Assembly (NCBI GenBank): GCA_013426185.1
Contig: CP058602.1
Location: forward strand, 724,582-788,581
Length of the DNA: 64,000 nucleotides
Direction of reading: 5' to 3'
Origin: Candidatus Woesebacteria bacterium
Lineage (GTDB): Bacteria > Patescibacteriota > Microgenomatia > UBA8517
The first letter of the stretch is position 1; each line of letters starts with the position of its first letter. Both the position numbers and the translations under genes were made by a program. Below the pieces are notes generated by a model. The model ran no database searches. It was not told where the DNA came from and worked only from the letters and a program-made list of their open reading frames with translations. Below, piece by piece: positions 55,921 through 60,055 of the stretch.

Positions 55921-58900
55921 GGTCTACTCACGCAATTGGTGGATGCCTAGGTGCAAGTTGCCGAAGAAGGACGCGTAAGACCGCGAAAGTCGTCGGGGAG
56001 CTGTCAAAAAGCTGTGATCCGTCGGTGTCCGAATGGGGAAACCTTGTCGCCTTTGGCGACAACCCGTGCCCTAAGAGGCGCTCCCAACAGTCAACAATCA
56101 ACACGTCTTGGCTTGGTTTGACAAGACTTACAACTAGTTGTTAGTTGGTGATTGGTAGTTGGTTGTTGGGAGTGCCTATAAGGCACGTGGAGGGAACCGT
56201 CTGAACTGAAACATCTAAGTAAGGCGTGGAAGAGAAAACAATAGTGATTCCGTTAGTAGCGGAGAGCGAAAGCGGAAGAGCCCAAACCCATCCGTGCGTA
56301 GCACGGGAAGTTCCATTACAACTACCAACAGTCAACAAACAACTACCAATAGCCAAAAAGATTTCAAGACTTTTGCGATTTGAAATTTTGGATATTAGAT
56401 ATTGTTTGTGATTTGGAATTTGCCTGCCCGCAATGCTTTCAGCATAGCTGATGCAGGCGGGTGATTTTGTGATTTGGAGCTTCCCATGCTGCGCATGAGT
56501 GGGGGTTGTAGGAGCCCAACATGAGAATTTGTTAGGTAGCAGAACAGTCTGGAATGTCTGGCCATAGAAAGTGAAAGCCTTGTATGCGAAACTTGGCAGA
56601 TTCTCTAGGGATTTCCTGAGTACCACGGTGCAAATACACTGTGGGAAGCTGGGGGAACCATCCTCCAAGGCTAAATACAACTTGCAACCGATAGTGAACT
56701 AGTACCGTGAGGGAAAGGTGAAAAGAAGGGCGGGACGCCCAGTGAAATAGAAACTGAAACCAGTTGCGGACAAACCGGCAGAGGGCGAAGCCCTCTGCAA
56801 CTGACAACAAGCCAAAGTATTGGCTTTCAACTATCAACTAACAACAAAACATAAGTGTTGATAGTTGGTTGTTTAAAGTTGTGGGTTGCGGAAGGCTTTG
56901 CCTGATGCCGTGCCTATTGAAGAATGAGCCGGCGAGTTGCTCATACGCTGCAAGCTTAAGCCCTTTGGGCGTAGGCGTAGGGAAACCGAGTGCGAATAGC
57001 GCGACTAGTAGCGTGTGGCAGACCCGAAACCAGGTGATCTATCCATGAGCAGGGTGAACCTTACCGAGAGGTAGGGGGAGGCCCGAACCCGTTGATGTTG
57101 CAATATCATGGGATGACTTGTGGATAGTGGTAATATGCCAACCGAACCTGGAGATAGCTGGTTCTCCCCGAAAGGTCTATAGGGACCGTGCCGGGCGAGG
57201 CGTTATTGGGGGTAGAGCTACTGGATGGATAAGGGAGGGCAACCAACTTTATTCAACCAAACTCCGAATACCAATGTACGCTATCCCGGTAGACAGCCAC
57301 ATCGGGCTAAGCTGATGTGACTAAAGGGAAACAACCCAGACTCTCGGCTAAGGTCTTTAAGTTTCCGCAGATTTTTCTGCGGCGGTGATTGCGAGTTTCT
57401 CGCTTTCGCTGCAGCTAAGTTTGAAAGGAAGTTTTCTTCTTCAGACAGCTAGGAGGTTGGCTCAGAAGCAGCCATCCTTTAAAGAAAGCGTAACAGCTCA
57501 CTAGTTGAAGGAGAAAGCGCCTAAAATTTATCGAGGATAAGCTGAACACCGAAGCCAGAGACCTCGTCCTTTGGACGAGCAGATTCGAAGTATTGATATC
57601 GAAATTCTAGAAAAATATTTTTGTGTTTTTTAGAATTTCGTATTTATAATTTCGGATTTTCTCGACCAGAGGTCGAGGTGGTAGGGGAGCGTTCCAAAAG
57701 CAGTGAAGCCAAATCGTAAGGTTTGGTGGAGTTTTTGGAAGTGAGAATGCCGGCATGAGTAGCGTACAATCTCGGTGAGAATCCGAGACGCCGAACACCC
57801 AAGGTTTCCGCTCAGACGTTCGTCGGGAGCGGGTTAGTCGGTACCTAAGGCAAGTCCCGATTGTATCGGGAGTAGCTGATGGATGACTGGTTAAAATTCC
57901 AGTATTTATTTTGAATCGCCAAACCTTGTGCTTCGCACAAGGAAATTCCAATACAACAATCAACAAACAACAAACAACTGTCAACAACCAAACAAATTAC
58001 AAAACTTTTATAATTTGAAGTTTTGGGTATTGTTTGTGATTTGGAATTTGTAATTTGGGATTTTCTTGAGCGAAGCTCAAGGTAGCTGGGGGTTGACAGG
58101 ACGGGATGTCCAAGGCCTACTTGTGAATATAGTAGGTGCAAGCTGTGAGGAAGGGTGGGTTGGAAAATCCGCTTACCTGTTTATTCAAGCAGCGATGCAA
58201 AGTCTTGCGAGAGCAAGGCGATTTTGGTGCATTCTGTCTTTCAAAAAAGGCTCGCAGCGAGATTCAAAGTAAGCCGTACCGTAAACCAACACAGGTGGGT
58301 TGGACGAGTAGTCTAAGGCGGGCGAGAGAAGGAGGCTTAAGGAACTCGGCAAACAAGCTGGACGTAAGTTCGCAAGATGTCCTACCTCGGTGCGCAGCAC
58401 CGAGCTACCAACTAACAACAACCAACAATCAACGAAATAATTCTTGTTGTAGGTTGTCTGTTTTATGTTGGTGGTTGAGTGCTGTGCACTTGGGGTCGAA
58501 GCTAAAGTTTGTCAGTCGACTGTTTATCAAAAACACAGGTCCGTGCAAAGGCGTAAGCCGAAGTATACGGGCTGACGCCTGCCCAGTGCCGGTAAGTTAA
58601 GGGGAGGTGTGCATAGCACACAACTTTCAACAACCAACAATCAACCGACAACTAAAGGGTTTGAGATTGGGAGTTGATGGCTGTGCGCTATGCGCACCGA
58701 ACTCAAGCTCCGGTAAACGGCAGCAGTAACTATAACTGTTCTACGGTGGAACTAAGCCGCCGTAGTAAAACCTAGCTATATGCTGGAAAATCCTGTTATT
58801 CGAGAACTACTATGGTATATTTTTTCTGTAGGGAATGTATACCAAGTAAAAAAGTTCATCGTAGGGATAATCAGCAGGAAAGACCGAGTTTAGAAGTGAA

Positions 58901-60055
58901 AAGTTAGATGTGTGAAGTTGGATTTATGAAACGAGAATCGAGATGGTTAGATAGTTATTAACTAAAGAAAAACTTAATCTCATCTCACACTTCATTTTCC
59001 ATCTTCCCATCTCACATTTCTTATTTCTAAATCGGAATCCTCAGAGACTATACGCTGGGGCTTGAGATTTTCTCAAGTAAGATATAGTCCGATCTCCAAT
59101 GAGAATTGGAGTTAACATTTGAGCGAAGTTCCTTGTCGGGTAAGTTCCGACCTGCACGAAAGGCGTAACGAGCTGACAACTGTCTTAAGCCTTCACTCGG
59201 CGAAATTGCGATGGCTGTGAAGACGCGGCCTACTTCCACCAGGACAAAAAGACCCCGTGGAGCTTTACTGCAGTTTAGTATTGATTTGGGTGTTTCAATT
59301 GTCAAGAATAGGAGGGACCCCTCCTTTGGAGGGGAACAGTGTGATACCTCTCTTTGAGGCACTGCAAATCTTACCTGAGAACCTTGCATACAGGTTCGGG
59401 GAAAGTGCTAGATGGGCAGTTTTACTGGGGCGGTACCCTGCTAAATTGTAACGCAGGGGCACAAAGGTCAGCTTGCTGCGAATGAAAACCGCAGTGGACG
59501 TGCAAAGGCGTAAGCTGGCTTAACTGCGAGTGCGACGGCACAAGCAGGTGCGAAAGCAGGTCTTAGTGATCCTCCGATGTCATGTGGGTGACGCGGAGCT
59601 TAACGGATAAAAGCTACCCCGGGGATAACAGAGTAGTCGCGCCCGAGCGTCCACAGCGACGGCGCGGATCGCTACCTCGATGTCGGCTCACCGCATCCTG
59701 GGGCTGGAGAAGGTCCCAAGGGTTGGTCTGTTCGCCCATTAAAGCGGTACGCGAGCTGGGTTCAGAACGTCGCGAGACAGTTCGGACTCTATCCGGTGGA
59801 AGCGTTGAATCTTGAGGGGAGCTCTCCTCAGTACGAGAGGACCAGGAGGGAGGAATCCCTGGTGTTCCGGTTGTTGCGTCAGCAGCATTGCCGGGTAGCC
59901 ACATTCCTTGCGGATAACCGCTGAAAGCATCTAAGCGGGAAGCCCACCCCAAGATCAGGATTCGTTATAGACCCCTGGAAGAATACCAGGTTAATCGGCT
60001 GGCAGTGGAAGAGGCGTAAGCCTTTAAGCTTACCAGTGCGAATTGGTCGAAGACC
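55921..60055 (+). rRNA. rrl: 23S rRNA, about 4.1 kb with multiple expansion/intervening-sequence hairpins and a roughly 370-nt insertion
   Basis: 5' GGTCTACTCACGCAATTGGTGGATGCCTAGG, GAACTGAAACATCTAAGTA, sarcin-ricin AGTACGAGAGGACC, domain V GGGATAACAG...CTCGATGTCGG, 3' ...TACCAGTGCGAATTGGTCGAAGACC. Confidence 0.8.
58733..59105 (+). other. about 370-nt ORF-less insertion in 23S domain IV at the 1917-1931 region (E. coli numbering), a known group I intron hotspot; possible intron
   Basis: conserved AACTATAAC ... [insert] ... GCGAAGTTCCTTGTCGGGTAAGTTCCGACCTGCACGAA flanks; no ORF inside. Confidence 0.4.

Follow-up and report, generated by a model that had tools for sequence, protein, structure and literature searches.

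The 64-kb stretch of contig CP058602.1 analysed here (the window) contains a bacterial-type cluster of 16S, 23S and 5S rRNA genes with several tRNA genes, as identified by an Rfam scan, and its open reading frames (ORFs) combine bacterial housekeeping and mobile-element genes (RNR, a XerC-like integrase, DivIC, a TrwB-like ATPase and S1). The S1 protein gene lies just 3' of the 5S gene, and the nearest named relatives of its product in a protein search were "Patescibacteria group" and "Microgenomates group" bacteria. In addition, H78 is mostly missing from the 23S rRNA (helices are written H in 23S and h in 16S rRNA), and a shortened H78 is reported as a Microgenomates feature (PMC9297842). 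Since the ORFs are bacterial, S1 has these relatives and H78 is reduced, the window was assigned to a genome of the Microgenomates within the candidate phyla radiation (CPR). An organelle (algal chloroplast), suggested by the repeats, introns and rRNA cluster, was ruled out by the bacterial gene content. Seven variable hairpin inserts are present in the 23S gene when compared to close relatives, at H10, H15, H25, H45, an H54a-like site, H63 and H68, and these are the subject of this report. We use the name "collared heptad hairpins" for the family of small, ORF-less hairpin elements found in the rRNA operon.

Limits of the inserts were set by BLAST anchors to E. coli MG1655 rrlH and by a six-way alignment with relatives. 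Loci of seven relatives were obtained via S1 homologues (a protein search, after which contigs were fetched), and all seven keep the order TrwB-like gene (minus strand), tRNA-Ile (minus strand), tRNA-Ala, 23S, 5S, S1; a search of genome contigs with S1 returned distant genomes only (≤41% identity), none with adjacent rRNA. The 23S genes of the seven relatives measure 3068 to ~7800 nt. The six close genomes aligned were the window and loci L022, L024, L026, L027 and L028, giving 2928 core columns over which the window is 84-90% identical to the others, and the 23S genes of relatives at this core identity measure 3068-3817 nt, with a different subset of inserts in each. The 23S gene and its extra sequence are listed below, with the block and net gain from the six-way alignment and the excess over the stated E. 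coli interval between BLAST anchors.

55916-60062, plus strand: complete 23S rRNA gene, 4147 nt (Rfam LSU_rRNA_bacteria, 2223 bits, model positions 1-2925).
56097-56178, plus strand: H10 loop hairpin insert with CAAC-heptad 5' arm and GU-rich 3' arm, without a GTGC-type collar; block at the H10 tip 56097-56178, +82; E. coli 130-179, +100 nt.
56292-56499, plus strand: H15 hairpin element, net +185 nt, collars at 56294-56304 (GTGCGTAGCAC) and about 56485-56497; block 56291-56475, +185; E. coli 276-285, +230 nt.
56423-56461, plus strand: nested 39-nt GC-rich hairpin (CCTGCCCGCAAT..TGCAGGCGGG) in the 3' arm of the H15 element.
56780-56905, plus strand: H25 hairpin element, net +103 nt, collar CAGAGGGC-GAA-GCCCTCTG; block 56792-56894, +103; E. 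coli 530-559, +105 nt.
57363-57410, plus strand: two small hairpins before H41 (E. coli ~1012), +42 to +47 nt in the window, L022, L024, L026, L027 and L028; E. coli 1013-1044 (junction before H41), +47 nt.
57564-57676, plus strand: H45 hairpin element, a full-length member of the collared family, collar TCGTCC-TTT-GGACGA / TCGACC-AGA-GGTCGA; block 57572-57673, +102; E. coli 1159-1185, +97 nt.
57926-58080, plus strand: H54a-like element in the interval between the 5' strand of H54 and H55 (E. coli ~1417), a full-length family member; block between H54 and H55 57922-58081, +160; E. coli 1364-1599 (H54 region), +181 nt.
58389-58491, plus strand: H63 hairpin element, collars GTGCGCAGCAC (58390-58400) and GTGCTGTGCAC (58479-58489), CAAC-heptad 5' arm, repeat family D5; block 58392-58488, +97; E. 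coli 1679-1772, +71 nt.
58607-58697, plus strand: H68-tip hairpin element, collars GTGCATAGCAC (58609-58619) and GCGCTATGCGC (58685-58695); block 58626-58690, +65; E. coli 1855-1888, +70 nt.

In a cmscan alignment, stretches of 106 nt (H10) and 201 nt stand against 6 model positions each, and H25 is interrupted by a large insert. The first-pass annotation of this DNA had also counted seven 23S insertions, and six of them are genuine variable inserts; the remaining one, at 57345-57470, contains the block at E. coli ~1012, which is ~45 nt longer than in E. coli and, because it has nearly the same length in all six close genomes, is a normal, clade-conserved part of the 23S rRNA, while the H68 insert had been overlooked. 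The inserts also gave weak Rfam hits to miRNA precursors of plants and viruses, which were discarded as generic long-hairpin similarity far below threshold.

All seven inserts are placed at helix tips and fold as long hairpins (z -7.4 to -9.9 against shuffles), e.g., at H10 with a minimum free energy (MFE) of -66.3 kcal/mol (z -7.8). Six of the seven are clearly more stable when folded as the sense strand than as the antisense strand (MFE -57.1 vs -37.4 at H45 and -57.4 vs -41.6 at H63), and at H68 the two are about equal (-48.5 sense vs -47.5 antisense). Their arms are periodic: lag-7 autocorrelation was 0.45 in the rRNA inserts and 0.47 in the P6 extension of the intron described below, compared to 0.38 in intergenic DNA, 0.27 in coding sequences and 0.25 in the 23S core. 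Most inserts also have at their base a palindromic duplex of the GTGC-NNN-GCAC type (e.g., the H15 collar given above, paired with GTGCTRYGCAC), which we call the collar. In the window and the loci of the seven relatives, collars occur in insert-bearing genomes only, and no collar motif was found outside rRNA genes. A typical member begins with a duplex of ~25 bp, consisting of the collar (an arm of 6-7 nt, a variable 3-nt core and the complementary arm) followed by GGAAAUUC paired to GGAUUUUC, and continues in a variable stem of 7-nt units, A/C-rich in its 5' arm and G/U-rich in its 3' arm. Such elements take the place of terminal loops on surface helices of the 23S and 16S rRNAs. Across 70 distinct end pairs, 92.4% of cells in the basal "rod" are paired, compared to ≤55% in slid controls, and the covariation of the basal duplex was reached by none of 500 shuffles. 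The core triplets of the collars occur in 16 variants and are complementary to their partner in 70 of 74 elements, where 22 are expected and the shuffled maximum was 33.

The 23-nt 5' end common to the window's H54a insert and the L022 inserts, TTGTGCNNNGCACAAGGAAATTC, was used to scan metagenome contigs and gave at least 120 matches where ~2 are expected by chance. Flanks were mapped for 90 matches in 80 loci among the matches listed, and at least 85 of these 90 lie in rRNA operons, always in sense orientation, at ~15 helix tips of 23S and 16S rRNA. The 23S copies occupy H45 (at least 18), H15 (at least 13), H63 (12), H25 (7), H98 (3-4), H9/10 (2), and H12-13, H68, H78 and H79 (1 each), with about 6 more in the 23S leader or trailer; the 16S copies occupy h6 (13) and the vicinity of h17 and h44 (a few). 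Element length among the matches listed ranges from 84 to 211 nt (median 165), and the terminal sequence is GGATTT(T/C)C followed by TCGYGC-N'N'N'-GCRCGA. Their hosts are very distant from the window organism, with 23S cores ~72% identical to that of the window, which puts them no nearer to it than E. coli. One host carries an S1 protein at 35% identity to that of the window; among named organisms, Ca. Gottesmanbacteria have the most similar S1.

A covariance model, R1, was built from 48 full-length elements. In the window, R1 recovered the H54a element with 115.9 bits (E 9.5e-19), the H45 element with 84.3 bits (E 6.5e-13; 63.4 bits on the antisense strand) and the interior only of the H15 element with 40.7 bits. 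Matches were also obtained at L022 H45 and H15 (137.5 and 131.6 bits), at L027 H25 (66.3 bits) and at two sites of L030, one at the 3' end of the 23S gene and the other not placed (59.8 and 43.8 bits). Throughout the window and the seven relatives' loci, full-length R1 matches were confined to rRNA sites, and no complete copy, i.e., neither a collar nor a full-length R1 match, was found in non-rRNA DNA; intergenic arrays gave weak interior matches without collars (E 0.02 or higher). All copies in the window lie within the rRNA operon transcript in sense orientation. Nested GC-rich mini-hairpins are present in some metagenome members (L098 2154-2315; L031 7782-7928), and that of L098, CCCTGCCCGCCGCAGGCGGG, resembles a module common to window positions 56423 and 17641. 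Since such mini-hairpins recur, the sequences suggest a second, smaller element that targets heptad arms.

Comparison among helices showed that the inserts are related by host rather than by site. In L022, the H15 and H45 inserts are 89% identical over 151 nt; in the metagenome locus L033, the interiors of the H63 and H78 inserts are 98% identical; and the interiors of further cross-helix pairs within metagenome genomes reach 79% and 77%. In the window, the interior of the H15 element is 78% identical over 130 nt to 57915-58100 (the H54a element), which in turn is 69% identical over 162 nt to the H45 insert of L022. Between genomes, a common helix brings no greater similarity (median 57% for same-helix pairs, 59% for different-helix pairs), and the same helix can hold unrelated inserts in different genomes, e.g., at H25 (the inserts of L024 and L027 are unrelated to the window's) and at H45 (window and L022). 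Occupancy is equally sporadic: the H10 insert is missing from L024, L026 and L027 and is represented by 55 nt in L022, the H54a-like site carries a hairpin of only ~20 nt in the relatives, the H63 insert is present in the window only among the six genomes, and the H68 tip of L026 has a different collared insert. Thus, where the first-pass annotation had named ordinary lineage-specific variable regions as the reading that would overturn its own, the inserts proved to be present or absent among close relatives, alike across helices (78-98%) and unalike at the same helix. From the sequences, the inserts appear to have been moved or converted between helices rather than to have grown in place.

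The 16S gene of the same operon is also interrupted. The Rfam call for this gene (49967-51469) conceals a split 5' end, the true start being near 49481.

49481-51469, plus strand: 16S rRNA gene, true extent, with the 5' end read from sequence.
49547-50025, plus strand: intervening sequence (IVS) in 16S h6, 479 nt, with inverted TTAACAA-heptad arms and collars GTCCGCAGGAC / GTCCTGCGGAT.
50109-50224, plus strand: collared hairpin element in 16S h9 (V2), 116 nt, collars CTGCGTAGCAG / CTGCTACGCAG.

The arms of the h6 IVS fold at -65.0 kcal/mol and enclose an ORF (49613-49975) of the 23S_rRNA_IVP family (PF05635, E 1.2e-26), while the h9 element folds at -67.9 kcal/mol (z -8.9). A PF05635 IVS-protein (IVP) ORF inside a long inverted repeat in h6 is a canonical hallmark of an IVS, here in the same operon as the 23S hairpins.

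In bacteria, IVSs are extra stems of 100-200 nt at H25 and H45 that are removed by RNase III without religation (PMC8708148). Short insertions that have neither ORF nor intron are numerous in CPR rRNA genes and uncharacterised, and PMC11270868 calls them "probably" IVSs; insertions in CPR rRNA genes were reportedly mostly missing from transcripts (Brown et al. 2015, as cited in PMC9297842). The inserts described here are extended stem-loops at helix tips, occupy both H25 and H45, and are sporadic among close genomes. Since their sites, sizes, hairpin form and patchy distribution and the IVP ORF match bacterial IVSs, an IVS-like reading is indicated, and the account that we favour, with some confidence, is that the single rRNA operon has been colonised by a Microgenomates-wide family of IVS-like collared heptad hairpins, probably excised by RNase III and copied between helix tips. 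Transcribed as part of the pre-rRNA, the elements would offer their conserved basal duplex for cleavage to an RNase specific for double strands, with RNase III as the most likely candidate. Excision in the manner of classical IVSs would leave the rRNA as fragments that the ribosome holds together: a predicted eight pieces of 23S rRNA (about 180, 110, 315, 675, 250, 310, 135 and 1000 nt) and three of 16S rRNA. New copies may arise by DNA-level copy-and-paste or by gene conversion between helix tips, aided by the common collars, and only insertions in tolerant surface loops would survive.

Several observations weigh against this account. The basal duplex includes two conserved A.C mismatches, and two U.G pairs are also conserved; each collar is moreover self-complementary, the 3' collar pairing with itself in 96% of cells, with compensatory changes. 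Because of these mismatches and this self-complementarity, a rod, a cruciform-like alternative fold and a palindromic protein site at the DNA level may be equally compatible with the collar data. The window's H10, H25, H63 and H68 inserts gave no R1 match at E≤1. They form a CAAC-heptad variant (repeat family D5) that is confined to rRNA, and H25, H63 and H68 show the collar architecture by eye; with H10 also lacking a GTGC-type collar, not every insert is a demonstrable member of the family. Terminal inverted ends are present in the form of the collars, and neither a target-site duplication flanking the rRNA hairpins nor a mobility gene was found. Finally, excision, the enzyme and fragmentation are predictions from DNA sequence, and to our knowledge seven cuts in one 23S rRNA would be unprecedented for a bacterium. 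A stronger version can be put forward only tentatively: the collared hairpins may be a dedicated mobile element of rRNA operons, with two-fold symmetric collars recognised by a dimeric RNA nuclease or by a recombinase or nuclease acting on DNA, and with extremely fragmented rRNA as the outcome. If true, the rRNA of Microgenomates would be extremely fragmented, with eight 23S and three 16S pieces in the window organism, and we know of such fragmentation only in some protists and organelles.

The hairpins could conceivably be retained in mature rRNA as expansion segments, either neutral or compensating for ribosomal proteins missing in CPR, with the collar as a structural or protein-binding feature. 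The sites do coincide with classical positions of such segments (H9/10, H15, H25, H45, H54, H63, H79 and H98), folding favours the sense over the antisense strand, and E. coli ribosomes tolerate unprocessed IVSs (PMC8708148). We consider this rather unlikely, since presence and absence vary at ~89% 23S core identity and sequences at the same helix are unrelated, which argues against a conserved structural role; orthology by site among relatives, the mark of a retained segment, was not observed. A 479-nt, ORF-bearing insert such as that in 16S h6 is also unlikely to be kept, members located in leaders and trailers are removed anyway, and the transcript comparisons cited above report CPR insertions as removed.

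A less probable origin is the one proposed in the first-pass annotation, i.e., that a genome-wide, MITE-like (miniature inverted-repeat transposable element-like) intergenic repeat transposes into rRNA helices and that the inserts are ordinary copies of it. The spacers of the window are mosaics of degenerate 7-nt arrays (TTTGGAA/TTTGTAA, TCTATAA/TCCAAAA, GTAGAAA, TTTTGAG/TTTTAAG, TCAGCTG), e.g., at 12014-12255, 12604-13123, 17419-17782, 30030-30504 and 61433-62022. The arrays fold better on the gene-sense strand, with many G.U pairs, and are inverted beside minus-strand genes at 42355-42677 and 55064-55749. One spacer holds the counterpart of an rRNA segment.

17623-17690, plus strand: intergenic counterpart, consisting of a heptad array TTTGTAATTTGGAATTTG, then the nested GC hairpin, then GAATTTGTAATTTT; repeat family D7.

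Positions 56405-56434 of the H15 element are identical to 17623-17652 at 29 of 30 positions (E 2e-9), nested hairpin included. This 39-nt hairpin, at 56423 and 17641-17680, directly follows TTGGAATTTG in both places, differs in its inner stem and has only these two exact copies in the window, while the TTGGAATTTG context occurs without it at 12174, 25176 and 55197 (minus strand) and in the H54a insert at 58041. The H54a element, which begins TTGTGC-TTC-GCACAAGGAAATTC, contains the 16-mer TTGGAATTTGTAATTT at 58041-58056, identical to sequence in three spacers (12174, 25176 and, on the minus strand, 55182) and matched 14 times with ≤2 mismatches, compared to 0.43 expected. The 7-nt periodicity is likewise common to inserts and spacers, and the H25 inserts of L024 and L027 share stretches of 19-26 nt with their own spacers. 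The claim that several inserts contain intergenic modules verbatim therefore holds for H15 and H54a, which share 20 and 13 (plus 11 reverse) 12-mers with the window's 8.9 kb of intergenic sequence (dinucleotide shuffles, ≤0.5); the other five (H10, H25, H45, H63 and H68) share no 12-mer with it, as expected by chance, and the rRNA core shares essentially none. Against ordinary copies also stand the restriction of collars and full-length matches to rRNA, the result for 30 metagenome loci, where element interiors and non-rRNA DNA showed no genome-specific sharing, and a reversed order of arms, with A/C first in rRNA and G/U first in spacers. In addition, GAATTTG stands on either side of the hairpin at 17641, and this apparent 7-nt duplication could be two neighbouring heptads of the array. 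Of the proposed invasion of rRNA helices by the repeat family, then, the helix-tip hairpins, the verbatim modules in two of them and the common periodicity stand, and its simple identification with the spacer repeat is not supported; judging from the sequences, the inserts are better described as a family of elements specific to rRNA, with variable arms written in the heptad vocabulary of the intergenic arrays. Growth in place, in which replication slippage of 7-nt units would have lengthened tips independently and similarity would be convergent low complexity, accounts for lag-7 and lag-14 periodicity that is strong in the inserts, the intron P6 loop and spacers and not in coding sequences or the rRNA core, but is very improbable and largely refuted by the paralogy between helices, failing on 89-98% identity over 110-150 nt between helices of one genome, on a non-repetitive collar kept in hosts with ~72% identical rRNA, and on a common, non-repetitive 39-nt hairpin.

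The 23S gene further contains a group I intron at L1931, which we take to be CPR site 23IS7. Group I introns at 23S position 1931 are also found in Simkania, Thermotoga and organelles.

58748-59121, plus strand: ORF-less group I intron after E. coli U1931 (L1931), a 374-nt excess between E. coli 1931 and 1932 (BLAST junction 1931|1932).
58880-59040, plus strand: long, 7-nt periodic hairpin expanding the P6 loop of the intron (125 nt vs 6 in the model).

Rfam Intron_gpI (RF00028) aligned the core from P3 to P9, including AGAUAUAGUC, with 46.4 bits and E 8.7e-10 to 8.7e-11; the score falls below the gathering score of 50 because of insertions of 58 nt in P5 and 125 nt in P6. The end of the 5' exon, CUACGGU, pairs in P1 with GCCGUAG, located within the next 18 nt, through a terminal U.G, and the intron ends in ...UUUG, i.e., its last base is G, after which the 3' exon restarts at AGCGAAGUUCC. 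The junction CTACGGT|AGCGAAG (CTACGGTAGCGAAG) is unbroken in L022, L024, L026, L027 and L028; the intron was in none of the relatives compared, and no sense-strand ORF of more than 37 aa was found in it. The first-pass annotation was correct in suspecting an ORF-less group I intron and in looking to an Rfam scan, which aligned the whole core at E ~1e-10, albeit below the gathering score, while its limits (58733-59105) were ~15 nt off. Introns are often found at L1931 in CPR, whose 23S genes have 222 group I introns without ORF on record (PMC11270868). The window's intron resembles known L1931 introns in its site, the terminal U.G in P1, the final G and the conserved P3-P9 core, and differs from them in the lack of a homing-endonuclease ORF, in the P5 and P6 extensions and in its sub-gathering score; as judged from sequence, the 374-nt insertion is a group I intron, predicted to be self-splicing and ordinary for CPR. 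Intron load in the 23S gene differs widely among relatives (L029 1420-9215; L030 4221-9495; L028 7054-7883; L026 8296-8795), L029 having up to six LAGLIDADG ORFs; the L026 intron, 500 nt long, lies after U1917 and holds a short remnant ORF.

Other features of the window and its relatives were also recorded. Between the 16S and 23S genes (52787-55063), the minus strand carries a TrwB/VirD4-like ATPase gene (DUF8128) and an inverted tRNA-Ile(GAU), a layout repeated in L022, L024, L026 and L030, and the 5S rRNA of L022 (9967-10102) is lengthened by 18 nt through an insertion (136 vs 118 nt). At 7940-8013 a tRNA-Ile is predicted whose anticodon, UAU, is uncommon in bacteria, and a tRNA(CAU) gene at ~9440-9745 (minus strand), for which ARAGORN gave no call, has its anticodon loop (CU|CAUAA) split by a group I intron (Rfam 9469-9726, 60 bits). 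A minus-strand ORF (37443-37814) coincides in part with tandem units of ~75-81 nt at 37528-37833 (repeat families D14 and D18). Of 52 ORFs, 46 are on the plus strand, and GC skew is positive all along the window (~+0.2); a one-directional skew is likewise reported for related Microgenomates genomes (PMC7143001).

With the collared heptad hairpins, many short CPR insertions that were so far uncharacterised form one recognisable family, with a conserved base, a covarying structure and restricted target helices in both subunits. Possible extreme fragmentation, and rRNA processing in these bacteria generally, can be approached concretely and testably from the fragment sizes and cleavage stem predicted here. 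The covariance model can be used to annotate inserts, which break 16S and 23S callers (as in the mis-delimited 16S gene here) and disturb primers and phylogenies, and the elements provide a natural map of the rRNA helix tips that tolerate inserts of 100-200 nt.

Like the rRNA IVSs of Salmonella, Yersinia, Campylobacter, Leptospira, Coxiella and alpha-proteobacteria, the hairpins are stem-loops of ~100-200 nt replacing the tips of H25 and H45 and those in the 5' region near H9, are patchy among relatives, and are mostly ORF-less, some having a PF05635 protein (here in 16S h6). Unlike them, they number seven in one 23S gene plus two in the 16S gene, and they occupy more helices (H10, H15, H54a, H63 and H68 in the window; H78, H79, H98, leaders and 16S h6, h17 and h44 in the family). 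They also have a conserved palindromic collar, 7-nt periodic arms and clear copying between helices, and their excision is predicted only. As far as the accessible parts of the CPR insertion surveys go (Tsurumaki 2022, PMC9297842; Tsurumaki 2024, PMC11270868), the same host group has a short (<200 bp) class without ORF or intron at IVS sites, IVP ORFs in 16S genes and L1931 introns, and 77-82% of CPR 23S genes have insertions, averaging about 1.2-1.3 kb per gene; those parts describe none of the family, the collar and GGAAAUUC stem, the heptads, the target breadth, the cross-helix copying or the link to intergenic modules. The insertion total of the window's 23S gene is about 1.17 kb. The hairpins share surface helix tips and a long, irregular hairpin form with the rRNA expansion segments of eukaryotes and Asgard archaea and with the mycobacterial H54a 'handle'. 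Expansion segments pass down by vertical descent, have sequences specific to their site and stay in the rRNA, whereas elements of the window's type are variably present in near relatives, and their homology runs across sites, not within a site. Palindromic repeats in spacers and in rRNA or structural RNA genes, sometimes also in introns, include the double-hairpin elements of Allomyces mitochondria, the GC clusters of yeast mitochondria, the Rickettsia palindromic elements and the palindromes of Volvox organelles. Set beside these as generally described, the complete element here is restricted to the rRNA operon and always in sense orientation, with spacers sharing its arm vocabulary and one mini-hairpin. 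The collared heptad hairpins are a new, well-defined variant of IVS-like elements.

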